Under the pieces are notes generated by a model. The model was not told the DNA's origin. It did no database searches and saw only the letters and a list, made by a program, of their open reading frames with translations. A stretch of 64,000 bases of DNA. Origin: Candidatus Oleincola secundus (lineage in GTDB: Bacteria > Atribacterota > Phoenicimicrobiia > Phoenicimicrobiales > Stramentimicrobiaceae). Location of the stretch: contig JAGYLS010000001.1 in assembly GCA_018400815.1 (NCBI GenBank), forward strand, positions 5,978 through 69,977, in the 5' to 3' direction. Positions 4,169 to 63,158 of the stretch are shown here, one piece after another. How positions within the stretch are numbered: position 1 is the first letter of the stretch; every line of letters starts with the position of its first letter. The position numbers were made by a program, and so were the translations under genes.

Positions 4169-6691
4169 TTAATTATTTAAAAATTTCCCGTAAATGAATT
4201 GTTGAACATCTTTTAACATATCATATTTTAAAACTTCTATCCCTTGTTTATCTTTGGAATAAGGATTTATATTGGTAACAATATATTCTTTATCATTAGA
4301 GTTATTTGGATTAGGTACTACTGATATTCTATAATTTAAAGGTTGTCCTGATCTACTAGTCATAGACAATATTTTACTATTTCCTCCTCTGTGCAAATAT
4401 GATAATTCATCTGTTATTTCTTTATATGTTTGATTACTATAAAGCCTATCAAAATTTCTAGTATATTCTGAAGCACTAATTGCTTCATTACTATTAGCTT
4501 CTATAAAGTATCTTTTGTTTGATATAAGGTCTCCATCTTTATTTCCTAATTTAAAAGAAAATGCTCTTTCTCCATTTAGCCATGTATAACCATCAAATAT
4601 TATTGTATTTTTTCCTTCTTCGATTTGAGAAAATATGTTTCTTATTTCATCTGTAATTGGTTTATTATTTACATCTACGGGTTGTGTTAATAAGGGAATC
4701 GAAGCATCAGCTTTATTTTCTTTTATATTTCTATAAATATTTTGCATCCTAGTAGTTATATTATCAGTGGCAGCTGTTATTATTTTAGGATCATCATATT
4801 TATAAATATCAATATTATTACTTTCTAATGTAGAAAGTTCTGTTTCTTCTGCTTTAATATTTATATTTTTTATAACTTGTAAGTATGATTTTATTTCATT
4901 TAACACAGAAGCTTTATTTTTATCTTGAGGTACTTTATTAGAAGCAGACATTAAAGTTCCAATATTTTCATAACTAGGCGTAGTAGTGCCAGGATGTCTA
5001 TCAAAAACAGATACTGCTCCTATATGTTTTATCACATCACTATTAAATATTCCTAAACTGTATAATGTGTCTAATCCTTTTTGTATAGATTCAGTATTTT
5101 GACTACTTAAATCATCTATTGCTTCTATAGCTAAATCTAAAGAATGTCCAGATTCTTGTACACTCTCTAAATCATCATTATATGATTCAAAATAAGAATC
5201 TATATTACTAAATACAACTTCTCTAGGAAGTGATCGGTTAGGATCTAAAGAATAAAATTTATCACTAGAACCAATGGGAGCATTTAAATCATTAAATATA
5301 TCAGGATTAAGATTTAATTCTTCAATTGCTTGTTTTTTAGTTTGATGATATGCTTTCATAGTATAATACAAAGGAACTATATGTCCCATTGCTTCTATTT
5401 GAATATCTTCTTTGGAACTCATTAAGTCACTGCTTAACTTTTTAAATGATTCATCTAAATCGTCATATATAGAAATATTTAAAAAATCATTAATAGCATT
5501 GATGGCTTCTTCATTTTCAGGATCATATATTGGATTACCATCTTCGTCTCTTTGGATAGTTCCATCTTTTCTTTTTGCTAAAGACAATCCTAATAAAGCA
5601 GAAGTTCTATCTTTTTCATTGACTAAAGAACCATAATTATTAGGTACTATGGGCAATCCTTCTTTTGTTTCTAATCTTTCTTTAACATCTAAAGGAGAAC
5701 TGATTAGATCATTTCTTAAATTAGGAGGATCTGGTACTTCAGTACCCATATTATAAAATTCAAGTAATTTATCTAATTTTGTTTGAGTTTCAATATGTTT
5801 TGTATGTTTATATTCTAATCCAGATTGAATTCCTCTTAAATTAGCTTTAAGTATATCTCTTCCTGTTACATTTATATTTTCTCCATTTAAAAAAGCTAAT
5901 TCTGTTTCATATAACCCCATTGTATTTAAATAATCACCAAATTCATCTGGTCTATCTTCAGAACTAAATCCAAATATCATATTCATTAATCTATTTTCTA
6001 AATCAGAATATGTTATTTCAACTGTACCATCTGAAACTTCTAAATCAGAAAAAAACTTATTAGTTAGTATAGAAGGATCAAGAGTTAAACTTTCTAAAGG
6101 AACATCATTATGTTCATTAAAATATAACTTATTATATATATTTTCAATCTGATTAGGTTTAACAAAATCTTTTATATAGGATAAAACAGTAGATTTAATA
6201 TCTTTTTGTTTTGGTAACCTAGATAAAGTAGAAGCTAGTTCATTACTATTAATAATCTCTTCTTTTGCTAATTCACTCCGTAAAACTTGAAATCCATACT
6301 GTTTAGTTAAATCATTATAATCACCAGATAATAAAGCATTATCAAAACCTTTGAATGCTTCACTATTATGAGTCCATTTCTTTATCTGTTCTCCTTCTTC
6401 ACCCATAACTAAATTTCTTGTCAAATTATGTATGAAGTTATCAGCATCAGCTATACTATTTTGATCTAAAAAGGCATCTATCTGTCCATTTATATCATTC
6501 TTTATATTATCAGCACTAGCTTGATATGCTTCATCCAAATCTAATTCAGCAAAATACTCACCTATTTTATCTATACCTGCTCTATTTTTATAAACTCTTT
6601 CTTGTACTACATTAAGGCTATTAGCTAAAGCATTATTAGATGAACCTGGATATTCAGGTCTTAATTGTGAAAACGATTGTTGATAAGGCAT
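4169..6691 (-). CDS. Hypothetical large virion protein, 840 aa.
   Basis: Complete ORF tightly packed between two other giant genes on the same strand. No recognisable motif. Confidence 0.6.
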   Translation of the reverse strand: MPYQQSFSQLRPEYPGSSNNALANSLNVVQERVYKNRAGIDKIGEYFAELDLDEAYQASADNIKNDINGQIDAFLDQNSIADADNFIHNLTRNLVMGEEGEQIKKWTHNSEAFKGFDNALLSGDYNDLTKQYGFQVLRSELAKEEIINSNELASTLSRLPKQKDIKSTVLSYIKDFVKPNQIENIYNKLYFNEHNDVPLESLTLDPSILTNKFFSDLEVSDGTVEITYSDLENRLMNMIFGFSSEDRPDEFGDYLNTMGLYETELAFLNGENINVTGRDILKANLRGIQSGLEYKHTKHIETQTKLDKLLEFYNMGTEVPDPPNLRNDLISSPLDVKERLETKEGLPIVPNNYGSLVNEKDRTSALLGLSLAKRKDGTIQRDEDGNPIYDPENEEAINAINDFLNISIYDDLDESFKKLSSDLMSSKEDIQIEAMGHIVPLYYTMKAYHQTKKQAIEELNLNPDIFNDLNAPIGSSDKFYSLDPNRSLPREVVFSNIDSYFESYNDDLESVQESGHSLDLAIEAIDDLSSQNTESIQKGLDTLYSLGIFNSDVIKHIGAVSVFDRHPGTTTPSYENIGTLMSASNKVPQDKNKASVLNEIKSYLQVIKNINIKAEETELSTLESNNIDIYKYDDPKIITAATDNITTRMQNIYRNIKENKADASIPLLTQPVDVNNKPITDEIRNIFSQIEEGKNTIIFDGYTWLNGERAFSFKLGNKDGDLISNKRYFIEANSNEAISASEYTRNFDRLYSNQTYKEITDELSYLHRGGNSKILSMTSRSGQPLNYRISVVPNPNNSNDKEYIVTNINPYSKDKQGIEVLKYDMLKDVQQFIYGKFLNN

Positions 6692-6707: not shown

Positions 6708-9068
6708 TTATTTATATAATCTAGGTAAAGCATTAGTTTGCCAATTTGAATTATAAAGTCTAGTTTTATTAGATTTAAATATCCTATTTTTATCTTTTTT
6801 GTTTCCATAAACATAATCTACAACTTCTTTAGGATAAGAATTAGCTGTGATATTAGCTATTTCCAAATCTAAATCTCTTCTTCTTTGATTATTAATAGAA
6901 CTCATTACATCATCACCAAAGTTAGCCATATTTGCACTAATATTAGCCATCATAGAATCACGTTTAGCAGCTAATTGATTATATTTAAATCTATTAACTT
7001 CATTGATTCTATTAGTATTTTCAGAATTAATTGCTACTGCCCTATTATTATATTCATTATCCATTTGAATATTCCTATCTATAATATCCGTCATAGTTTG
7101 TTGTTTAGCATTTAATCCAGCAGATACTAATTTTTGTTTAGCTGCTCTTAATACTTGTGAGTTTGAAGTATTTAATTCTTCATTACTAATAGCTGATTGT
7201 ATTTCTCTTGATATATTTCCTAATCTACCATAAGGATTTAATCTTCTTCTTGATGGCATAGATACTAATTGAGCAGCAGGAACATCAGGTTTATTAGCAA
7301 AACCATCATATAAAGATAAAGCTAAATTACCAATATTATCAACAGCAGATAAAGCTATGTCATTTTTAATATTAGATGTAGCATTACTATTCTTAGATGT
7401 AGCATTACTATTCTTAGTTTTTGTATTTATATCATTAGATATAGTATTATTAAATGTAGAATCCACATCTTGATTTTTATTTTTTCTTAAATCTTTATTG
7501 AATTGTCTTTTAAATTGTCTAAGTTGTTTATTAGCGTCTCTAGTAGCTAATCTGTCAAGACTTTTATCTGCCTTTTCAACTGTCTCATTTAAATCATAAT
7601 TAAAACCCCATTCATTATAAAAAAACGGATCGTTCATTAATCTCTTAGTATCTTCCTTCAAAGATTTATTTATAGTTCTTTTTTCTCTATTCTGTTTAAG
7701 TCTTTCACCTTTCAACAAATTAGGATGTTTAGACAAGTAATCATTCTTTGCATATTCCATAGTATGATCCATTTGTTTTTTTGGAATATCTTCAGAACCT
7801 ATTGGATTAGAAGGTTGTAAATATTCATATCTTTTTTGACCACCTTTAACTTTTCTATCATCTTGTCCAATTATACCGTCAGCACTAACATTTGAGTTAT
7901 TTGTTACATTCTGTTTCCCTTCAGATAAAGGTATATATAGCTTATCATTAAATCTATTTTTAGATTCATAATATTCTCCATTTATATACATACCATTATA
8001 CAAATCATCTGGTAATATAGGATAACTAGGTCTAGCACTTACATGATCAGGCCATTTAGATTTATTAAAAGTAATAGTTTTCCAATCACCAGAAGGATTA
8101 TTTATAGGGCCACCAGCTTGCATTTCATTAGTTTTCATCCCTGCATATCCCTGTTTATCATTAACAGAATTATACATTTCTTGTTCAGCAGGTATTAATT
8201 TAGCTTTAGACATAAAACCATCAGATAACCTCCTTAACCTATTACCTTCAATCTTATCTGCTGTTAGTGTAGCTTGTTCTTTGTATTTATCAGATTGAAG
8301 TTTAAGTTTCATATATCTATCAGAAAATGAATCACCAAGTCTAGGATTACGTTTGGATAAAGCATAATTACCATCAATTACAACCTCTCCTGGTTCTAGC
8401 CTAGATTCCTGCCCTGAGGCTCCCTTCAAAATTAATTCATCATTGGTCTCGTGGAATCCTTCAGTTGTTCCTTTATCATTAACAGATACAGAATCACCTC
8501 CACCTATATTCATAAGTCCACCATTAGCTAATCGACCTCCATTACTATAATCATCTAATTTAGATTCTCTAAAGTCTTTATATTTTTGATCAGCAGCATC
8601 TTTTTTACTTTTATATTTTCTAAGTTCTCTAGCTACAAGATCTTTATATGAAACACCATGTGCTTCAGCATTTTGTAATGCAAGTCCATAATAAGGTTTA
8701 CTAAGCCATCTATAAAGTCTATTCTTATCTTTGTGTCTATCTCCAGAATACCAATCTACATTTGTCTTAGCAAATCTGTTAAGTTTTTTTAATTGCCTAT
8801 TTTGATATTGAACATCCAAAGGTATCATTTTACCATCTATATCCCCACCAGCTTGAAAGTTAAAACTTTCAAATTCATTTCCACCATATTCATATCCAGA
8901 AAATCTATTTTGATCTTCAATTAATCTATTTGATCTGATTTGTTGAGATTGTTGAAGCATTTGCTTTCTTCTTAACTCTGCTTCTTTCTTCTTATTAATT
9001 TCATTCATCAGGATATTTGTTCCAACTCCTACCCCTTGTGCGACTAAAGAACCTAATAAAATTGACAT
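6708..9068 (-). CDS. Hypothetical large virion protein, 786 aa. It has an N-terminal hydrophobic segment and contains an in-frame 21-bp tandem duplication.
   Basis: Complete ORF. The repeat KNSNATS x2 is encoded at 7374-7415. Confidence 0.6.
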   Translation of the reverse strand: MSILLGSLVAQGVGVGTNILMNEINKKKEAELRRKQMLQQSQQIRSNRLIEDQNRFSGYEYGGNEFESFNFQAGGDIDGKMIPLDVQYQNRQLKKLNRFAKTNVDWYSGDRHKDKNRLYRWLSKPYYGLALQNAEAHGVSYKDLVARELRKYKSKKDAADQKYKDFRESKLDDYSNGGRLANGGLMNIGGGDSVSVNDKGTTEGFHETNDELILKGASGQESRLEPGEVVIDGNYALSKRNPRLGDSFSDRYMKLKLQSDKYKEQATLTADKIEGNRLRRLSDGFMSKAKLIPAEQEMYNSVNDKQGYAGMKTNEMQAGGPINNPSGDWKTITFNKSKWPDHVSARPSYPILPDDLYNGMYINGEYYESKNRFNDKLYIPLSEGKQNVTNNSNVSADGIIGQDDRKVKGGQKRYEYLQPSNPIGSEDIPKKQMDHTMEYAKNDYLSKHPNLLKGERLKQNREKRTINKSLKEDTKRLMNDPFFYNEWGFNYDLNETVEKADKSLDRLATRDANKQLRQFKRQFNKDLRKNKNQDVDSTFNNTISNDINTKTKNSNATSKNSNATSNIKNDIALSAVDNIGNLALSLYDGFANKPDVPAAQLVSMPSRRRLNPYGRLGNISREIQSAISNEELNTSNSQVLRAAKQKLVSAGLNAKQQTMTDIIDRNIQMDNEYNNRAVAINSENTNRINEVNRFKYNQLAAKRDSMMANISANMANFGDDVMSSINNQRRRDLDLEIANITANSYPKEVVDYVYGNKKDKNRIFKSNKTRLYNSNWQTNALPRLYK

Positions 9069-18683: not shown

Positions 18684-19463
18684 TTAAACCACTTCCCATC
18701 CTTGTGGATATGCTGTTGGTGACCAAACATTTGCATCAATCAAAGACCGATAATGAGTTCCTTCAAACATTACTTCATCTCCTGTATTGTAAGCATCATG
18801 CGCACCTGCTGGTTGTGTCCACTCTGGAATAACACCAGGAGGAGCTATTTCAACAAATAATGAAACTGCCACTAAAGGATTCCAATCATTTTGCGAAGTG
18901 TGAGATTGAATTACTTTATATAATTTGCCATCATGCACAACTTTATCATCAATTTCATAAGAAACACCATTTCCACGCCATTGTGAAAATAACATCTTAA
19001 TATCTTCGATGTCTTGTTCAGTTAAATTATCTTCATCAGCAATGATAGGTTCAGCTATTTTTCTTAATAGCCTTTTGGCTGCTTTATCATTGAATTGATT
19101 ATCTTCGATTTGTAATTTCAATTCTTCGTAATCTTCTGTTGATAATTCATCAACCATTGCCTTAGCATAGTTCGCAAAATTGTTATATTCAATAAAAGAA
19201 TCAATATCCTCATTTGCTTGCTTTTTGCGCACAATAGCAGCTTCCTGATCGGCTGTGTATCGGGTGCGGATGATTGCTGTTATAATTGTGCCTCTGTTAA
19301 TGTCAGGAACATTCACATATTGATAATTAAAACTTGCGGGCGTTTCCTCTGTTGCTTCAATTTCTGTAAAATCATACCTGAACTGATACGTTTTATCGGT
19401 AAGAAGTTGTGTTTCGGTTGTCGGTAAGGCTTCATTGCCTTGTTTTGTTCTGTTGCCTTTCAT
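18684..19463 (-). CDS. Protein with two tandem C-terminal CBM5/12 (chitin-binding type 3) carbohydrate-binding modules. Possibly a tail-fibre accessory or adhesin.
   Basis: DGKLYKVIQSHTSQNDWNPLVAVSLFVEI and AYNTGDEVMFEGTHYRSLIDANVWSPTAYPQGWEV match the CBM5/12 consensus (AY..G..V.Y.G..Y.C.Q.HTS..W.P...W). The gene is GC-elevated. Confidence 0.6.
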   Translation of the reverse strand: MKGNRTKQGNEALPTTETQLLTDKTYQFRYDFTEIEATEETPASFNYQYVNVPDINRGTIITAIIRTRYTADQEAAIVRKKQANEDIDSFIEYNNFANYAKAMVDELSTEDYEELKLQIEDNQFNDKAAKRLLRKIAEPIIADEDNLTEQDIEDIKMLFSQWRGNGVSYEIDDKVVHDGKLYKVIQSHTSQNDWNPLVAVSLFVEIAPPGVIPEWTQPAGAHDAYNTGDEVMFEGTHYRSLIDANVWSPTAYPQGWEVV

Positions 19464-19547
19464 GTTATTATTATTATGTCGTTATTATTAATGATTTTGC
19501 GAGCATAGCGAAGCAATCTTATGTTGTTTTTATACTTCATACTATGT

Positions 19548-21149
19548 TTAAAACTCCAGGAAAAGGCGAGAGCCAATGCTCGCATGGCGATCAGACGCAG
19601 GATAGCTGACGCGCAGAGACGCGAGGCCGTCAAACGCACCAAGGTGCAGATAGCCGCCCGCAAAAAGGCCGCGAAAACCAACGGTGGGATAGGCGGTATA
19701 AAAATAATCGCCACAATGGTTTGATCCGCTGCCTGTACCGCCCGTGAGTAGTGGCAGCATAGAGCCTTCTGCAAAGGTATTCACATAACCATTGCCTTCA
19801 GCTATGTTTTTGTAAAACTCATAATTTGTAAAAGTATCGTCAGCAAAATTTGCAGGATTTTTACAAATGTATGTTTCTGAATTTTCGGCACTGTTGTAAA
19901 TGTTAATGCCATCCTTCCACTCCCATATATGCCCAAAAACATCGCGCTGCCAGTGGAAAATAGCCATCTGCGTGCTTAAATCGCCTGTGCCACCTACAAA
20001 ATCACTAACAGTAAGTGGTATGCTGCCATTGCGGACATTAGCGGTATTCGGGTCAGCAGGTGTGGCAGTAACCGTTCCTGCTCCTGTTGCCGCTGCGCTT
20101 CCTCCGTCAGTTGTCCATACAGGATTGTAGGCGTTGTAGCTACTCCAATCGTCGCTACTTGCATTTGATGCGCCATCTCCCAGGTTTGTTTGTGAGTTCA
20201 TGTTCAAAAACTCAACCAACATCAGCCAGTATTTCATTTCATAATACCAAAATGGTTCCTGGCTCCATTTGCTGTGTGCTGTTTTATTTTGCGCGTAGGT
20301 ACGAAATTCAGATCGGCCTTTATTCGTTGTTGGCGTTACGCCTGAAATACTTCGCAGCTTACTATCTCCTGCAAGGTCAGCGTAGGCAGGGTAAATGCCT
20401 ACTGCATGTTTTGGCACTTCAATAAATCCTGGCAGTGCATACTTGCTAAACATGATTTGTTGTTTGTTACGCAAAGTATCTCTGTATGCTTTGAAATACA
20501 TACGTTCATACACCGTCATTACATCACCATCAGCACCTGTAAGAACAGATGCAGTAACTCCATCTTCTTTCAGTGAAAGATTTGTTGGGTCAAGTTTATA
20601 GGCAATTGTTCCATCTTCTTCAACCACAGCAGGGTAGATCATGTCATAACCAGTTACTGCATTTTGTGCAAACAAAACAGGATTACCTATTGCAGTAACA
20701 GTTGAATTTGTTTGACCTGGTGTCCATTCTACGCCGTACCAATATGTATCAAATGAATTGAATATTGGGTCATTCATCACTACATAATCACTTGCCCCTG
20801 TGTACATCACATCAACATACTCCCATTGGTATCTTAATGTTGCTATTGTATCACCATTATAATCAGTTACAGCTACAGTACCAGATGTATCATCTACTTT
20901 TTGTATTCTGAATCTGACATTTGTTAGGGTACTCGAATACAAAGGGTGAGAACCATAAATTTGAAATTCTAAATCATCTGTACCTGTAGTAAACAGATAA
21001 TGATTGTAACCTTCATAATCAGATACACTCTGACTTGTAGATACCGCAATAGGATTAAAAATAGTCGATGTAATAACAATAGGTGTAGTATCACTTGTTA
21101 AATCTGATATTCTTAAATCTCCTAATATATAATCATAAACTAGTCCCAT
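19548..21149 (-). CDS. Tail fibre / receptor-binding protein. It has an AT-rich N-terminal phage-type anchor and a GC-rich C-terminal FGE-sulfatase / C-type-lectin-like domain.
   Basis: C-terminal motifs FGHIWEWKDG (FGE 'GNVWEW') and GG..LG....RVSYPASDRHASIGSRL (FGE 'RGGSW..R.AYR....R..IGFR'). GC jumps from about 30% to 45-58% at about 20750. Confidence 0.6.
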   Translation of the reverse strand: MGLVYDYILGDLRISDLTSDTTPIVITSTIFNPIAVSTSQSVSDYEGYNHYLFTTGTDDLEFQIYGSHPLYSSTLTNVRFRIQKVDDTSGTVAVTDYNGDTIATLRYQWEYVDVMYTGASDYVVMNDPIFNSFDTYWYGVEWTPGQTNSTVTAIGNPVLFAQNAVTGYDMIYPAVVEEDGTIAYKLDPTNLSLKEDGVTASVLTGADGDVMTVYERMYFKAYRDTLRNKQQIMFSKYALPGFIEVPKHAVGIYPAYADLAGDSKLRSISGVTPTTNKGRSEFRTYAQNKTAHSKWSQEPFWYYEMKYWLMLVEFLNMNSQTNLGDGASNASSDDWSSYNAYNPVWTTDGGSAAATGAGTVTATPADPNTANVRNGSIPLTVSDFVGGTGDLSTQMAIFHWQRDVFGHIWEWKDGINIYNSAENSETYICKNPANFADDTFTNYEFYKNIAEGNGYVNTFAEGSMLPLLTGGTGSGSNHCGDYFYTAYPTVGFRGLFAGGYLHLGAFDGLASLRVSYPASDRHASIGSRLFLEF

Positions 21150-21152
21150 AAT

Positions 21153-40633: not shown

Positions 40634-41041
40634 TTATTTTATGCTTTTAACATTTTTAAACTGTGATTTTAGTTTATTAGCCAGATTGCCATTTTCTTTG
40701 TCTCTGATTTCTAAATTTCGTTTGGCTATTGATTTCTTTAATAGATTCTTTTTCTGAATATCATTTATAGTATCCTTATCTATACCTTGTTCTTTTAAGT
40801 ATTTATCAAAATAAGCATAACCTGTTATTTTTGATTCATTACAAATAAATGTACCAAGTTTAGGAAAATTAAAATCTACTTTATTATTAAAAGCATCAAT
40901 ACAAGCAGCTAGATTTATATTATGTATTGCTAATAACTCTTCTTCAGTAAAGCCTTTTAATCTTTTATTGGCTTTTGATATTATAGTATTCTTACAAAAA
41001 CTACTATCTTTTAAATCAATATCTAAGTCAAAATTATACAT
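40634..41041 (-). CDS. Hypothetical protein, 135 aa.
   Basis: ORF. Second gene of the minus-strand arm. Confidence 0.45.
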   Translation of the reverse strand: MYNFDLDIDLKDSSFCKNTIISKANKRLKGFTEEELLAIHNINLAACIDAFNNKVDFNFPKLGTFICNESKITGYAYFDKYLKEQGIDKDTINDIQKKNLLKKSIAKRNLEIRDKENGNLANKLKSQFKNVKSIK

Positions 41042-41525
41042 CGAATACTTTATTAGCTTCTTTAGTAGTAAGTTTAATTTCTGAATCTAAATCTAATAAT
41101 TGTTTAGCTGCTTCTGAAGTAGAATCATAATAACCTAATATTCCATAAGCGGGAATAATAACATATTCTTCTAACTTATATCTTTTAATTCTACTAATTA
41201 TTATCTTTCTTTGGTCAGGTGTTAGCTTTTCAAATAAACTAGAATAATATTTAAATGATTTAGTATTATTAGGTAAGTTAACACCAAAAGGAGCTGAATT
41301 AGTATAATCATTAGTTAGTTTAACTACATCACCTATTTGAAAACCATGTGTAGTTGGCCCATATCCTTCTACAGTTAATACAGTTTTATCATTATAATCT
41401 TTAGGTATTTTACCTTGACTAAAAGCCATAGCTGATACATTATAACTAATCTTCAATAATACATTATCTCCAATTAGTTTAATAGGTTGTCTTGTTTGTG
41501 GTGGTCTTGATTGTGTAAAGTCCAT
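41034..41525 (-). CDS. First gene of the minus-strand arm, 163 aa. It has a weak GroES-like co-chaperonin pattern.
   Basis: IKLIGDNVLLK ... GKIPKDYNDKTVLTVEGYGP ... FQIGDVVKL resembles GroES (P.GDRVLVK ... G.VVAVGPG ... VKVGDKV). The similarity is low. Confidence 0.3.
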   Translation of the reverse strand: MDFTQSRPPQTRQPIKLIGDNVLLKISYNVSAMAFSQGKIPKDYNDKTVLTVEGYGPTTHGFQIGDVVKLTNDYTNSAPFGVNLPNNTKSFKYYSSLFEKLTPDQRKIIISRIKRYKLEEYVIIPAYGILGYYDSTSEAAKQLLDLDSEIKLTTKEANKVFDV

Positions 41526-42791
41526 AAATTTAATGTTTAATTAGTAATGTATATTAATATGTAAAACAAATATTAGCTGAAAAATATTTTCTTTTAACTG
41601 GGCTAGTTCTAATTAGAACATTTTTATATAATTGCAAGTAATAATTTTTTATTATTATATACATTATAAATAATTTGTTTTAATTTTTGCAATCTTCCTT
41701 AAATTAATTTTTATAATTTAAAATAATTTTTTATTATCGTATTTTATAATTTCAATTAGTTATTTTTTAATTATTTTTCAAATAATTACAAACAACTATT
41801 TCAATTACAAAATATAAAACTTTTTAAATATATCTTAAATCTTAAATACTTGGCAAAGTTAGTAAAAATAAATGACAATGGCAACTACATTTAACATTTT
41901 TTAACATTTTTTAATTTATAACTACTTGATTATCAATACTTTACAAATAGATATATTTTTATCAATATTAAAAACTCTACTATTATCTATTGTATATTCT
42001 ACATTTACAATCATTAAATCTATTTTTGTTATTATTAATATTATTATCAATATCTTTATTAAATTTATTATATAATCAAATAATTACACAACATCTTGTA
42101 AGCCTGCCCGGAGGTTCTTCGGAAAATAATACATATAATTGGCACGACTTTTCCAATATCTACTATAATCTACTATTTAACCTAATGTTTAAACTAATGT
42201 ATTAAGTCTATTAGCAACTATAGTATTTAATAAATCAACTAAATTATTAGTTCAGAGACAATAAAAATACACCATAATAAATAGATATTAAATAAATAAA
42301 CTGTGATTAATAATATAGATGCTATAATAATACTAATAATATAGATTTTAATAATAGTAGAATAATACTAAATAATATTATGATATTTTAGAAATAACAT
42401 TAGGTTATATGATAGAAATTTAAATAATATATAATAATGAAGATTGATTTATTCTGTGGTTGATTTTAATAATTGATTAAATTGTAGATTGAGATAGGTA
42501 AAATTTAAAATTATAAAATGTAATTTTAAGCATGAGTCTCTCTTATCCTATACCCCCACTACAATTTTGGTTTTGAAGTACCCCGTCTCTTTTTGTCAGA
42601 GGTATTATTACTAATGTTAAAAAGGGACCCTTTACACTTGTCTCTCCTCATATTCACGCAATGGTTGATAATAGAAATCAGGCAGCATTCTTACCTAATG
42701 CTCCTCGCACACTTAGCAATAAAGTCTGCCTGATTATTTTTAATGATTGATGAAATGATCCTATACATACGACAATAGTGGTCTTGGCTTT
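41526..42791. promoter_or_regulatory. A 1.27-kb AT-rich divergent intergenic region. Presumed to hold early and late promoters and possibly an origin.
   Basis: No ORF. Very AT-rich (over 80%) until 42.5 kb. A 10-bp tandem repeat ttaacatttt x2.5 lies at 41891-41915, and iteron-like aataatacta(a)ataata copies lie at 42330-42400. Confidence 0.5.
42676..42745 (+). promoter_or_regulatory. Hairpin plus U-run upstream of the moron gene. It could be a terminator, an attenuator or a small RNA.
   Basis: aatcaggcag...ctgcctgatt forms a 10-bp stem with an inner gcatt/aatgc stem. It is followed by atttttaat. Confidence 0.35.
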
Positions 42792-43541
42792 ATGCCTATT
42801 TTTAATGTAATTAATATGTTTAATTTAAAATCTTATCTTATGAAAAGAGATGAATTTAGTGCTAAGATGATTGAACTTAATGTTGACGCAGCAGATGTTG
42901 ACAGATTAGTAGCAATTCCCGGTATCAATGGCAAAACTTATGCTCAATATGCAAAGAGAATTGCTGAATCTGGTGATCCGATCAATGAAGTAACTGCAAT
43001 CATTGCCGAAAGCATCCCGGTAGATGATAATGTATTCTCCATTGACAGACCAGAAAGAGTACTGGCTACTGGTAAAATTGTATCCTGCAAAGTACAAAAA
43101 GCGTACAAAGGATCAACAGCCAGTGTAGTTAATGAAGATGGCAGTGTAACATTACCTACAACAGATTGGCAACGTACTCATTACAGATTAGTTTTGTCTG
43201 TAGACAATGATGTTATCGTTGTTATAGCCGGACACAGGAAAATGTATCAACAAACAGAAGAGATGTTGAGTGATTCGGAAATGTCCATTGATCGTAAAAT
43301 CATTAATGCGGTAAATGGTAAAAATGCTACCCTTGAATTTGATGTGTTTAAACCTGGTAAAATATATCAGATTGAAGGTAGTGATACTGTTAAAAGACCT
43401 GATGTCCTCGAAAGACATTTAGTAGACTTATCCATTGGTGAATCCGAAGATCAACGAAGGATCGAGTTCATTCAAAAACTCATGGAAATCTCAGGAGGAC
43501 AGTTAACCCCAGAGATAGTAGAGTTGAGCAAGTCTATCTAA
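42792..43541 (+). CDS. Hypothetical protein encoded by a GC-elevated (about 40%) moron. The likely start is ATG at 42840.
   Basis: ORF with codon usage unlike the rest of the phage. It is flanked by its own structured leader and a terminator. No family recognised. Confidence 0.55.
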   Translation: MPIFNVINMFNLKSYLMKRDEFSAKMIELNVDAADVDRLVAIPGINGKTYAQYAKRIAESGDPINEVTAIIAESIPVDDNVFSIDRPERVLATGKIVSCKVQKAYKGSTASVVNEDGSVTLPTTDWQRTHYRLVLSVDNDVIVVIAGHRKMYQQTEEMLSDSEMSIDRKIINAVNGKNATLEFDVFKPGKIYQIEGSDTVKRPDVLERHLVDLSIGESEDQRRIEFIQKLMEISGGQLTPEIVELSKSI

Positions 43542-43568
43542 GAAACGAGTGTAACCTCCTTTAGCAAG

Positions 43569-43598
43569 TCTCCCAGATCATCGGGAGATTTGCTTTTT
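43569..43598 (+). terminator. Rho-independent terminator after the moron gene.
   Basis: tctccc-agatcatc-gggaga hairpin followed by tttgcttttt. Confidence 0.5.
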
Positions 43599-45420: not shown

Positions 45421-45606
45421 GTTTGGAGTGTGTATGATGTAATCGAAAGCATAGCTTGTAAGAATGTTTGGGTTTGAATCCCAGTGCACACCATTCTATT
45501 TCCAAATAAGTTAGAGTTGTAATATGTACCATTATAAGTATCATATTACATTGGGGTGATACATTACAACTTCACCCAACATAGATAGGGTGACACTCTT
45601 TTTTTT
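45421..45606 (+). ncRNA. Candidate small structured RNA containing a tRNA-like T-arm and acceptor 3' fragment. It ends at an intrinsic terminator.
   Basis: gtgtgta(45428-34) pairs with tgcacac(45485-91). T-arm ttggg-TTTGAAT-cccag at 45468-45484. Long imperfect hairpin gttgtaatatgta/tacattacaac. Terminator caccc..gggtg + T8 at 45574-45606. Confidence 0.3.
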
Positions 45607-51152: not shown

Positions 51153-51371
51153 ATGGTAATTATAGAAAACTTAAAACCAGGAGATAGTGTTCATTATATG
51201 CCAGATCATTATAAAACAATAGACCACTTTGAAAATGGTGTAGTTAAAAAAATAGCACCAAATGGAAATGTGTTTGTGGTTTATAATTGTAATGGTGAAT
51301 GGCATAGATATAAAGAATACACAGCAGCTAGTACAAAACCAGAAGATTTATATATGGGATGGAAACAGTAA
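51153..51371 (+). CDS. Small hypothetical protein, 72 aa.
   Basis: ORF. Confidence 0.4.
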   Translation: MVIIENLKPGDSVHYMPDHYKTIDHFENGVVKKIAPNGNVFVVYNCNGEWHRYKEYTAASTKPEDLYMGWKQ

Positions 51372-51473
51372 GACTTTAAATGTTATAAATATTGAGTAAA
51401 CTGAACATCACATAATACATTATTTTCTGAAGATACCTCCGGGCAGGTTTAGTAACCATTTAAAATATTAAAT

Positions 51474-51662
51474 ATGATTGTTAGTAATTTTGTAAAAGAT
51501 GAAGTTTCCGATAACTTAATTGAGTTATTTAGAAAAGAAATGGAAAAGTGGGATAGTTTATTAATAGGATTATCTTTTAATCATTATCCTACTTATGATA
51601 AAGATGTACTTGAAACAATGTTGCAATATGCAATAGAAAAAGAAAATGGATATGATATTTAA
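51474..51662 (+). CDS. Small hypothetical protein, 62 aa.
   Basis: ORF. It lies 20 nt downstream of copy B of the GC-rich inverted element. Confidence 0.4.
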   Translation: MIVSNFVKDEVSDNLIELFRKEMEKWDSLLIGLSFNHYPTYDKDVLETMLQYAIEKENGYDI

Positions 51663-54683: not shown

Positions 54684-55821
54684 TAGAAATTGGGGCTTGT
54701 AAAACACTTCTAATTGACGGGAACATCCTTAGAGTTTATCATACTAAATTTATTATAGAAATATAAGTAAATGGCACATCTAATCAATGTGGTATAGTAA
54801 AAAATGATAAAATTGGACAATCCGCAGCTAAGACTCTAAGTGTAAAATAATACATATGAGTAAAGTTCAACGACTATCCCAAATGGGAGTAGGGTTATTA
54901 TTCAAATAATAGCTCGAAACGGAGTGATTATTATATATTGAATGTTCATAAGTTGTTAACAACTTTACATAAATTTGTTATGTAGTGTTATGAATTGTAG
55001 TAATTTTACAAAATAATTAATTAAAATATAAAAATTATGAAAGTTTATAATTCAACAGACAAAAGTAAAAGTAGTAAGAAGCATATTATTTATGCTTTGC
55101 TTAATCCTGTATCAGGTGAAATATTTTATATAGGGTGTACTACAAAATCTTTACAAATAAGATTAGAAAATCATTATCGTAGTTTGGCAGAAGCAATGAA
55201 TACAGATAGAAGAAAAATGTCAGAACGACATAGGTATTTAAAAAATATTTACCCTATTAGAGCTACAATAATTAAATTAGATGAAACTAATACAAATCCA
55301 TACGAGTTAGAAAAGGAATATATTGAAAAATATAAACAATTAAATCCTAATTTAACAAATGTAGCAATTGGAGGAAAAGGTGGTGATACTTTTACTAATC
55401 TTACTAATAAAGAAAAAGAAGAAAGACAACGACTTACGAAACTTGCTTTAACAGGAAGAAAAAAACCAGAGGGTTTTGCTGAAAACTTATCAATAACTAG
55501 AACAGGTTCTGGTAATCCTAGAGCAGGAGCCACTAAATATGGAAAAGTGGTTAGATTCAATGAAAAAAGTGATATTATTACGATTTATAATGCTGGTTAT
55601 GAACTTGCAGAAGAATTTGGTAAGTATTTTCATGGTAATTTAATTAGAAGTTTAAAGAACTTAACAACTTTAGAAAAATTAAATTATTATCATAGAACTA
55701 CAAATACTTATTGGAATTTTGAACATAATTTAAAATACAATCCAGTTAATCGTATTACACATCCTTTTACTAATAATAAGATATAGTCTGACTTTATATG
55801 AAAGTATAAAGATAAAAACCG
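54684..55821 (+). mobile_element. Group I self-splicing intron, about 1138 nt, carrying a homing-endonuclease ORF between the R and S elements (P8 region).
   Basis: P-like aattgacgggaacatcc (54712-28), Q aatccgcagc (54819-28), R gttcaacgactatcc (54865-79) and S aagatatagtctgac (55778-92). The exon ends in U (ctt), and the IGS gggctt (54692-97) can pair with exon aagctt. The intron ends with G55821. Confidence 0.7.
55037..55786 (+). CDS. Intron-encoded GIY-YIG homing endonuclease (I-TevI-like), with a C-terminal NUMOD-like DNA-binding region.
   Basis: HIIYALLNPVSGEIFYIGCTTKSLQIRLENH matches the GIY-(x10)-YIG ... R ... NH motif. There is a conserved Glu (LEKEYIEKY) and Asn (NPNLTNVAIGGKG). Confidence 0.8.
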   Translation: MKVYNSTDKSKSSKKHIIYALLNPVSGEIFYIGCTTKSLQIRLENHYRSLAEAMNTDRRKMSERHRYLKNIYPIRATIIKLDETNTNPYELEKEYIEKYKQLNPNLTNVAIGGKGGDTFTNLTNKEKEERQRLTKLALTGRKKPEGFAENLSITRTGSGNPRAGATKYGKVVRFNEKSDIITIYNAGYELAEEFGKYFHGNLIRSLKNLTTLEKLNYYHRTTNTYWNFEHNLKYNPVNRITHPFTNNKI

Positions 55822-61706: not shown

Positions 61707-63158
61707 ATGACTCGTAATGATAGGCAGAAACAAAGTGTATCTTTAATTAATAGAGATAACAATAATATAATATTAAATTATGTACCCAGATTTGGTAAAA
61801 CTAAAACAGTAATAAAAGCTATAGCTAATGGTAATTATAATGAAATATTTATTGTTGCTCCTAATGATTTATTAAAACGTCATTGGGAGGAAAACATTAG
61901 AAGTGATTATAGTATTTCTAATTTACCTATTTCAATAACAGTAGAAACTGCCCGGAGAGTTGCTTCAAAAAATGATATATTATTTTGTGATCTTCTTGTA
62001 ATAGATGAAATACATAAGTATCTAACTCCTGACTTAAAGGCTATTCTAAATAATGAAATAGTAATATCTAAAAAAATAATAGGTTTAACTGGTACTATGC
62101 CTGTTAAAAAAGAAGATTTGAATTACTTAAAAGCTATATTTCCCCTAACAGATGTAATTACTGAAGAACAAGCTATATTAAATAATTGGATTAGTAACTA
62201 TACAGAATATAACTTAGGTGTTTCTTTTCCAGATAGACAAAAAGACAGATATGCTTCATTAAGTGATACAATAACTAAAGTATTAGAGATATTTAAAAAA
62301 ACTCATTTGCTAATTACTTACAACAATGGGCAAGGAAAGGTCTTTAAGGATGATTTAGCATTAATATATGCTTGTCTTAGGGGAATAACATTAAATAGTA
62401 AATATATTCCTGGAGAAAAAATAAGAGATACTTTAGCTAGGAAAAAAGGTTGGACTAAATCAATATCTTTAAAAGATGATGCTTATTCTGAAAATATAGA
62501 TATTTATTGGAATCCTAATTCTATAAAAGATAATGCCCTGGCTTTTACAAATGCTATTAGAGCTAGAAATAAGTTATTATCTGAATCTTGGATTAAATTA
62601 GATACAGCTGTAGAAATATGTAAAAAGTTTAATGCACCTACTATTATATTTAGTGAAAGTAGTAAATTTGCAGATGATTTAGAATTAAATATTGAAAAAC
62701 ATTATCCGGGTAAAAGTTGTATTTATCATTCAGCTTTAGAGTCTAGATATATGTATGATGTAGAAGGTAATTTAATAACTTATAAAAATGGTAGAGTTAA
62801 GAAGTTTGGTAAAGCTGCTTTAAAGAAATTAGCTGTAGAAGGACTTAAAACTGGAGTATATACTTTTTTATCTACTGTTAAATCATTAGATGAAGGATTT
62901 GATATTCCTAATTTGACTAATGCTATAATAACATCTGGCACAGTTAATCCTTTACAACAACAGCAAAGAAGTGCTAGAGTTAAAACATTAGATTTAATGA
63001 ATACATCTAAATCTCCAAGAGTAATTAATATTTTCTTTAAAGATTTTATCATTAATGGAAATTTGATAAAATCTAGAGATTTAACCAAATTATTAGAGCG
63101 ACAAAAGGTTAATTCTTTTGAACCAGTTTGGATAAATTCAGTAGATGAAATTATCTAA
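61707..63158 (+). CDS. SF2 helicase (DEAD/DEAH-like, ResIII/UvsW-like).
   Basis: Motif I PRFGKTKT, motif II VIDEIHK, motif III GLTGT, motif V TFLSTVKSLDEGFDIPNL, motif VI QQQQRSARV. Confidence 0.7.
   Translation: MTRNDRQKQSVSLINRDNNNIILNYVPRFGKTKTVIKAIANGNYNEIFIVAPNDLLKRHWEENIRSDYSISNLPISITVETARRVASKNDILFCDLLVIDEIHKYLTPDLKAILNNEIVISKKIIGLTGTMPVKKEDLNYLKAIFPLTDVITEEQAILNNWISNYTEYNLGVSFPDRQKDRYASLSDTITKVLEIFKKTHLLITYNNGQGKVFKDDLALIYACLRGITLNSKYIPGEKIRDTLARKKGWTKSISLKDDAYSENIDIYWNPNSIKDNALAFTNAIRARNKLLSESWIKLDTAVEICKKFNAPTIIFSESSKFADDLELNIEKHYPGKSCIYHSALESRYMYDVEGNLITYKNGRVKKFGKAALKKLAVEGLKTGVYTFLSTVKSLDEGFDIPNLTNAIITSGTVNPLQQQQRSARVKTLDLMNTSKSPRVINIFFKDFIINGNLIKSRDLTKLLERQKVNSFEPVWINSVDEII

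Follow-up and report, generated by a model that had tools for sequence, protein, structure and literature searches.

A small family of GC-rich repeats around an ORFan block in a distant crAss-like phage, a candidate site of lineage-specific control

In lambda (OL-pL/OR-pR and nutL/nutR) and in HK022 (putL/putR) two mirror copies of a site stand on either side of a central block and each of them faces one gene arm. For crAss-like phages the timing of gene expression is largely unknown; promoters for the virion polymerase have not been found, and only middle and late promoters of the host type have been described, as in phi14:2 (Drobysheva et al., bioRxiv 10.1101/2020.03.07.982082). Host-type promoters that match the middle and late promoters extracted from phi14:2 are present in the DNA considered here, a stretch of 64,000 nt (contig JAGYLS010000001.1, positions 5,978 to 69,977; the window in what follows) which belongs to a distant crAss-like phage. 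The same window contains a GC-rich element of about 34 nt that is distinct from these promoters. A first-pass annotation had described the element as an inverted pair of copies 9.3 kb apart. It is, however, a small repeat family of three, perhaps four copies rather than a simple pair. We tentatively propose that it may be a cis-regulatory recognition site, of the operator or promoter-proximal kind, for a phage-encoded factor that has co-evolved with it. The copies, C1 to C4, are the following.

42100-42134, plus strand: C1, full copy, AAG CCTGCCCGGAGGT T CTTC GG AAAATAAT ACAT, nhmmer E about 1e-8
51415-51450, minus strand: C2, full copy, AAA CCTGCCCGGAGGT AT CTTC AG AAAATAAT GTAT, nhmmer E about 1e-8
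61947-61980, plus strand: C3, partial copy, A CTGCCCGGAG AGTTG CTTC AA AAAAT G AT ATAT, in the superfamily 2 (SF2) helicase open reading frame (ORF) 61707-63158
8405-8439, plus strand: C4, possible eroded copy, ATT CCTGCCCtGAGGc TCC CTTC AAAATtAAT, antisense in the minus-strand ORF 6708-9068

C1 and C2 are the inverted pair of the first-pass annotation, which had placed them correctly, had found both to be intergenic and had judged their shared 13-nt core to be improbable; all of this was borne out. The core, CCTGCCCGGAGGT, occurs as an exact 13-mer at 42103-42115 (plus strand) and 51435-51447 (minus strand), and the chance expectation for an exact 13-mer in the 64-kb window is 1.5e-5. Three matches at two mismatches or fewer were obtained in none of 100 dinucleotide shuffles. 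As the AT-rich background fills the window with long repeats of low identity, composition and not length was used as the yardstick, and by composition no 11-mer outside the C1/C2 pair is repeated in the window against a chance expectation of less than 1e-3. The two copies are also two of just four GC-rich 12-mer islands in the window. C1 is unchanged and colinear in an independent contig (L006; 99% identity to the window) from another sample and sequencing run.

The element is built of three blocks, CTGCCCGGAG, CTTC and AAAAT, with 3-5 nt between the first two and 0-2 nt between the last two. C1 reads aagCCTGCCCGGAGGT-T-CTTCGGAAAATAATACAT on the plus strand and C2 reads aaaCCTGCCCGGAGGT-AT-CTTCAGAAAATAATGTAT on the minus strand; across about 34 nt they differ by one transition (G versus A) and one single-base indel, and outside this extent their flanks are unrelated. 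The outer limits and the three-block structure are common to all copies, and the spacers vary: C1 and C2 differ by 1 nt, C3 and C4 by as much as 3 nt. The shared extent together with the unrelated flanks argues for a discrete recognised unit and not for decayed longer duplications, and the survival of a GC-rich core in AT-rich DNA argues that this unit is under selection. Symmetry of the core is weak (4 of 6 symmetric pairs in CCTGCCCGGAGG, by direct reading) and the element as a whole is asymmetric.

C1 is located in a divergent non-coding region of 1.27 kb between the first leftward gene (41034-41525) and the first rightward ORF, which starts at 42792. C2 is located in a gap of 102 nt between ORF 51153-51371 and ORF 51474-51662, and 27 nt separate the end of its core from the ATG. 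The third copy had been noted before as a 10-nt partial match inside the helicase gene. The match is present, one base away from the position originally given, and it is a genuine copy of the motif and not a coincidence of ten letters: CTGCCCGGAG at 61948-61957 continues to about 61980 as CTGCCCGGAGagttgCTTCaaAAAATgAT, the full reading at 61947-61980 being aCTGCCCGGAGagttgCTTCaaAAAATgATatat. The expected count for any 10-mer sub-word of the core is 0.007, the pattern of the tail has a frequency of 1.6e-4 after a given position, and a profile made from C1 and C2 alone recovered C3 at E=0.0036. Translated in frame, C3 gives T-A-R-R-V-A-S-K-N-D, between helicase motif Ia and motif II (the DExH box). 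Its codons are rare, GCC accounting for 5.6% of Ala codons and CGG for 1.2% of Arg codons, and its residues are variable among helicase homologues. The homologues show no insertion at this point, which rules out that C3 is an inserted element. C3 is thus native coding sequence in which the motif is present as nucleotides, and its retention in rare codons at variable residues points to a constraint acting on the nucleotides.

The fourth copy is suggestive only. C4 matches 11 of the 13 core bases as well as CTTC and AAAAT, it was the top non-member match in leave-one-out profile searches (E 0.12-0.34), and it may represent an eroded member of the family. Neither the remainder of the window nor the 6.5 kb past its right end, taken from a 100%-identical contig, contains a further copy.

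It had been pointed out that the motif might prove to be a frequent promoter or terminator consensus with occurrences all over the genome. With three to four copies it is not common, and it is neither a host-type promoter nor a terminator. The host-type pattern of Bacteroidota sigma-A (TTG/TTTG near -33 and TAnnTTTG near -7) was found on neither strand of any copy. A scan for intrinsic terminators called none of the copies, which share no stable hairpin and are not followed by a T run on either strand. A conserved hairpin was also rejected, as only C1 forms a 6-bp stem and the folding z-scores (about 0.2-0.9, both strands) are no better than those of shuffled sequence; the stem common to all copies is the 4-bp GGAG/CTTC with a loop of 3-5 nt. 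There were no Rfam matches at gathering thresholds in the whole window, and at E<=1 the region 41.5-46 kb gave just a sub-threshold match to the S15 leader, located away from the motif. ARAGORN found no tRNA or tmRNA, and relaxed runs gave poor candidates that were likewise away from the motif. Finally, GGAGGT is not a Shine-Dalgarno sequence here, as no start codon is suitably spaced from it and the starts of genes in the window are preceded by A-rich leaders without a Shine-Dalgarno sequence.

Among the sequences searched, the motif is also private to this phage lineage. Three pattern scans of IMG/VR and one of the JGI metagenomes gave just isolated matches in GC-rich or coding contexts, and one of these, which resembled C3, proved to be a coding coincidence (Cys-Pro-Glu-Cys). 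Among the GTDB genomes (one per species, 185,579 species) there were two chance matches, both in GC-rich genomes, and an origin of the motif from a host genome or a CRISPR repeat was rejected on this ground. The first-pass annotation had proposed to search the full genome and related phages; the window yielded the three to four copies described above, and the motif is absent from the nearest relatives examined. The terminases of the closest relatives are 64-69% identical to that of the window. The closest relative that spans the divergent region is L010 (GCA_964563715.1, contig CAZLXA010000005.1; terminase 64% identical), which shares none of the ORFs of 42.8-57.9 kb. At the syntenic position of C1, as placed by short synteny anchors, L010 has ordinary AT-rich DNA. 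Absence outside the lineage is what would be expected of a site that co-evolves with its reader.

L010 has a motif of its own, however, which is about 40 nt long (TATTCATTTTAAAGTTTT..GGGCTAT) and is found in three copies.

5092-5132 of L010, plus strand: first copy of the L010 motif
5828-5868 of L010, minus strand: second copy, inverted relative to the first
15003-15036 of L010, plus strand: third copy

In the syntenic divergent region the first two stand 695 nt from each other in inverted orientation, a pair whose score was reached by 1 of 100 shuffles. The third copy, about 9 kb away and in the same sense as the first, gives the layout X, X', X; it is intergenic in the structural arm, between the portal module and the gene that comes ahead of the capsid gene, and a terminator-like hairpin follows the copy closely. 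Both the L010 motif and that of the window are private, have three copies of 35-40 nt and include an inverted pair at the control region. They differ in that the L010 motif is unrelated in sequence and AT-richer, its pair is separated by 695 nt instead of 9.3 kb, and its third copy is intergenic. Homology of the two motifs was considered from a likeness of their end sequences (ATGTATTATT ... ACAAGATG) and was rejected, as the likeness was lost in profile searches. As L010 has a private motif in the same region, private low-copy motifs of 35-40 nt recur in this subgroup. Not every member of the order has such a motif: in phi14:2 no repeat is compositionally improbable and no comparable motif was found.

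The surroundings of the copies bear on their possible role. The large terminase and the portal protein of the window match Crassvirales profiles, the terminase having no more than 38% identity to its counterpart in any deposited phage, and no match was obtained with the DNA itself. From 41525 the genes run to the left and from 42792 to the right, the GC skew flips at about 42 kb, and from 42.8 to 70 kb every gene is on the plus strand; the leftward arm carries exonuclease, terminase and structural genes and the rightward arm carries the replication genes. Promoters of the Bacteroidota type (TTG-N17-19-TAnnTTTG) are found at 41861 (minus strand) and 45853 (plus strand). The host is probably a member of the Bacteroidota. 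The block from 42.8 to 51.4 kb consists of about 20 small, co-directional ORFs and of long non-coding regions. No family matches were obtained for the ORFs of the block, no relatives of its proteins were found in IMG/VR, and no defence-system, recombinase or DNA-binding domains were detected in its ORFs by Pfam, PHROGs and PADLOC. The block resembles the early left end of phi14:2, and by this analogy the ORFan block is probably an early region. The earlier account, in which the pair brackets the cluster of small early genes, needs correction: there is no clear functional boundary at C2, as small ORFs without annotated function go on for about 2 kb rightward, to 53.4 kb.

Our favoured reading, though with modest confidence, is that the element serves as a recognition site in this setting. 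C1 and C2, in non-coding gaps, flank the block of small ORFs in mirror orientation. If the element is read as ATTATTTTCYGAAGA(W)ACCTCCGGGCAGGYTTA, each of them faces outward: C1 would face the leftward arm with the exonuclease, terminase and structural genes, and C2 would face the rightward replication arm, 27 nt before ORF 51474. The eroded copies within ORFs would act as weaker secondary sites. A factor binding to these sites might then take part in the timing of expression of the two arms. Several observations weigh against such a role. The nearby small ORFs contain no candidate reader, as Pfam, PHROGs and PADLOC found no DNA-binding domain in them; the spacers between the blocks are variable, which is awkward for rigid contacts between protein and DNA; and the palindrome of the core is weak. 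C1 is 578 nt away from the first leftward gene with a host-type promoter between the two, C2 does not stand at a sharp functional boundary, and the outward reading makes C3 antisense to the helicase gene. In addition, phi14:2 lacks a comparable motif, and its early transcripts have no common upstream motif (Drobysheva et al., bioRxiv 10.1101/2020.03.07.982082). A binding site for a phage regulator was one of the roles suggested in the first-pass annotation; it is still the best-fitting reading, although no binding factor was identified.

Several other explanations were weighed against a regulatory site. The main rival is long-range or trans RNA-RNA pairing, and we regard it as unlikely that the element acts in this way, on rightward transcripts, which would carry the copies in the order X (C1), X' (C2), X (C3). 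If C2 paired with C1, or alternatively with C3, the resulting GC-rich duplex of some 30 bp would be a site for RNase III or for the control of messenger RNA (mRNA) stability or translation, with the ORFan block on one side and the replication genes on the other, and within the message of the helicase. For C1:C2 a duplex energy of -52.9 kcal/mol is predicted and for C3:C2 one of -37.4, compared with a background of -11.6 +/- 4.0. Pairing requires the inverted orientation, and it would explain why a GC-rich element is found in AT-rich RNA, why its sequence is private to a lineage and why one copy is inside an mRNA and written in rare codons; the 1-nt differences in spacers would be bulges, and the substitution between C1 and C2 (G versus A) would be a G-U pair on plus-strand RNA. 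On the other hand, complementarity is automatic for any inverted repeat and a single wobble-compatible change is no evidence for pairing. The model assumes that C1 is transcribed rightward, the possible C4 would be on the transcript of the other arm, and wobble-compatible changes are not over-represented among the seven differences that separate the arms of the inverted pair of L010, as judged by reading the sequences. To our knowledge there is no precedent for pairing across 9-10 kb within the mRNA of a DNA phage, and this counts against the model. The duplex could in that case separate the message of the ORFan block from the replication message and tie the fate of the helicase mRNA to it, which seems rather improbable; such RNA-level action may be likened to the cyclisation sequences of RNA viruses and to the processing stalks of ribosomal RNA operons, and we know of no RNA switch of kilobase range described in a DNA phage. 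It is similarly hard to regard the copies as functionless relics, i.e., short patches that ectopic repair, gene conversion or template switching has spread, or the two ends left over from a mobile insertion that has decayed, in either case not eroded so far, and we consider this improbable. The motif is private to one lineage and L010 is AT-rich at the syntenic position of C1, as a relic would have it; C2 and C3 perhaps have some 15 bases more in common (p about 0.02), a hint that sequence was copied out of the helicase gene or into it, and the double-strand breaks could be supplied by the GIY-YIG endonuclease gene at 55037-55786. This gene is the only mobile-type gene seen and it adjoins none of the copies. 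A shared extent of about 34 nt with unrelated flanks is, however, unlikely for independent neutral events, and a perfect GC-rich core in two copies should erode fast in intergenic DNA of about 20% GC. The ends of a decayed insertion, as suggested in the first-pass annotation, have become a weaker explanation: the 9.3-kb block yielded no transposase and no homing-type gene, the copies are not bordered by a target-site duplication (the best shared flank, GTAA, is at unequal offsets from the repeats), the 9.3-kb segment is far longer than a miniature inverted-repeat transposable element, and C3 is native coding sequence and not an insertion relative to its homologues.

The geometry of C1 and C2, repeats of about 34 nt in inverted orientation around a segment of several kb, is that of the Mu G and P1 C segments, and they could be the crossover sites of a site-specific recombinase that inverts or exchanges the 9.3-kb segment. 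Inversion would keep the gene arms coherent, with the block joining the leftward arm, and none of the block ORFs was found in L010. The scan for recombinases covered the ORFs of the block, the rightward arm to 70.5 kb (Pfam marks on L037) and the tested leftward ORFs, with some structural ORFs outside it, and neither Pfam nor PHROGs detected a recombinase domain in the ORFs scanned across 70.5 kb of a genome of probably 88.5 kb. There is no clear half-site structure, the palindrome of the core being weak, and C3 is in direct orientation to C1 in the helicase gene, so that recombination between C1 and C3 would remove 20 kb of replication genes. A single independent contig (L006) spans C1, and it is colinear with the window; none crosses C2. 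The inversion or recombination sites of the first-pass annotation are weakened by these findings, as one or two copies are inside ORFs and recombination among the copies would delete or break replication genes, and such a role is very unlikely. A further candidate reader is the virion-packaged RNA polymerase, for which the element would be a promoter or recognition site by analogy with the hairpin early promoters of N4. The genome belongs to the Crassvirales, and the virion polymerase of phi14:2 transcribes only single-stranded or denatured DNA, from promoters that are unknown (Drobysheva et al., bioRxiv 10.1101/2020.03.07.982082), which speaks for this possibility. The element is low-copy, long and lineage-private in the way of phage-polymerase promoters, and all copies can form the small GGAG/CTTC stem with its loop of 3-5 nt, the stem of C1 reaching 6 bp. 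Yet the hairpin is not conserved and the z-scores given above are low; the orientations are plus, minus and plus (plus also for C4), so that either reading leaves one copy antisense to local genes; the early transcripts of phi14:2 lack a common motif and its genome lacks a comparable repeat; and the ORF of a virion polymerase was not identified among the scanned ORFs of the window. A virion-polymerase site therefore seems a remote prospect, and a recognition site for a co-evolving phage factor is the reading that we tentatively retain.

Other features of the divergent region and its surroundings were observed in the course of the analysis. A GC-richer non-coding element at 42545-42640, just upstream of ORF 42792, is conserved with L010, unlike the DNA around it. 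Its conserved boxes are GGGTCCC, ACGGGGTACTTCAAA and GGGGGTA, and it is flanked by a repeated (G)ATCCTATAC; ATCCTATAC is found at about 42546 and about 42760, and the corresponding parts of L010 are at 4322-4344, 4749-4771 and 4780-4870. This element, which has no Rfam match, could be a conserved non-coding RNA or a control element. For ORF 42792-43541 (249 aa) no family match was obtained, and its GC content is slightly above that of the DNA around it; the ORF is directly followed, at 43563-43594, by a strong terminator-like hairpin (12 bp and then a T run). The first leftward gene, 41034-41525 on the minus strand, encodes a protein of 163 aa with an N-terminal sequence (IKLIGDNVLLK...GDVVKL) that by eye resembles GroES/Gp31 co-chaperonins; there is no profile match, and identity to the L010 and L011 counterparts is only 27-32%. 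The protein had been considered as a candidate regulator and was set aside because of this likeness. A hypervariable patch is found at 41645-41726 within the divergent region, where the otherwise 99%-identical L006 shows clustered substitutions and indels, and another contig from a different sample (L005) ends at 41668. In the non-coding part of the block, a tRNA-like fragment at about 45440-45500 has GGGTTTGAATCCC, which is T-arm-like, and after it the acceptor-like GTGCACACCA; with default settings ARAGORN made no call, and with relaxed ones a weak call. The gene at 55037-55786 is free-standing and homing-endonuclease-like, and it is placed in the replication module with unusually long gaps of 350 and 221 nt on either side. 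Elsewhere in the window, the GC content at 19000-21150 is 40-41% compared with about 27% for the genome. This region covers ORF 19548-21149 (533 aa, no Pfam match), the neighbour of which, ORF 18684-19463, has a CBM_5_12 carbohydrate-binding module, and it may be a horizontally acquired host-recognition gene.

A private low-copy motif beside a presumed early block, with a counterpart in L010, is a concrete target in the search for a lineage-specific control step. If the proposed activity is true, the motif would be a new recognition motif of crAss-like transcription or, at the RNA level, a long-range RNA switch. If it is without function, it would be a clean example of the spread of short sequence patches in a phage genome, including into an essential gene.

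Comparison with described systems gives partial likenesses. The promoters of the N4 virion RNA polymerase belong, like the genome studied here, to a group with a packaged polymerase, and they too are few, long, lineage-specific and near the early region, with a possible stem-loop; they are, however, co-oriented at one end of the genome and have a conserved stem of 5-7 bp with a loop of 3 nt, whereas the stem common to the copies here is 4 bp and their orientations are mixed. Short inverted repeats around a segment of several kb are also found in Mu (G/gix), P1 (C/cix) and Salmonella (hix). Those systems have an invertase, half-sites around a central dinucleotide and tail fibres in the segment, none of which was found here, where the segment contains presumably early ORFans and a third copy is located in an essential gene. 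The PeSL sequences of T4 similarly combine a repeated, regulatory-looking motif with a hypervariable, ORFan-rich early region; they are numerous direct repeats made of a sigma-70 promoter and a stem-loop, while three to four inverted copies without either are present here. With regard to the lambda and HK022 pairs, the lambda operators are 17-bp palindromes in triplets with the repressor gene between them, whereas the present element is asymmetric and GC-rich, and the nut and put sites need conserved RNA hairpins, whereas no conserved hairpin, repressor or antiterminator was found here. The 9.3 kb between the copies moreover hold about 20 co-directional ORFs, and further copies are inside ORFs. 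The element fits no family tested, and as far as such analogies can be drawn it is the operator/promoter pairs of phage control regions that its layout most resembles.

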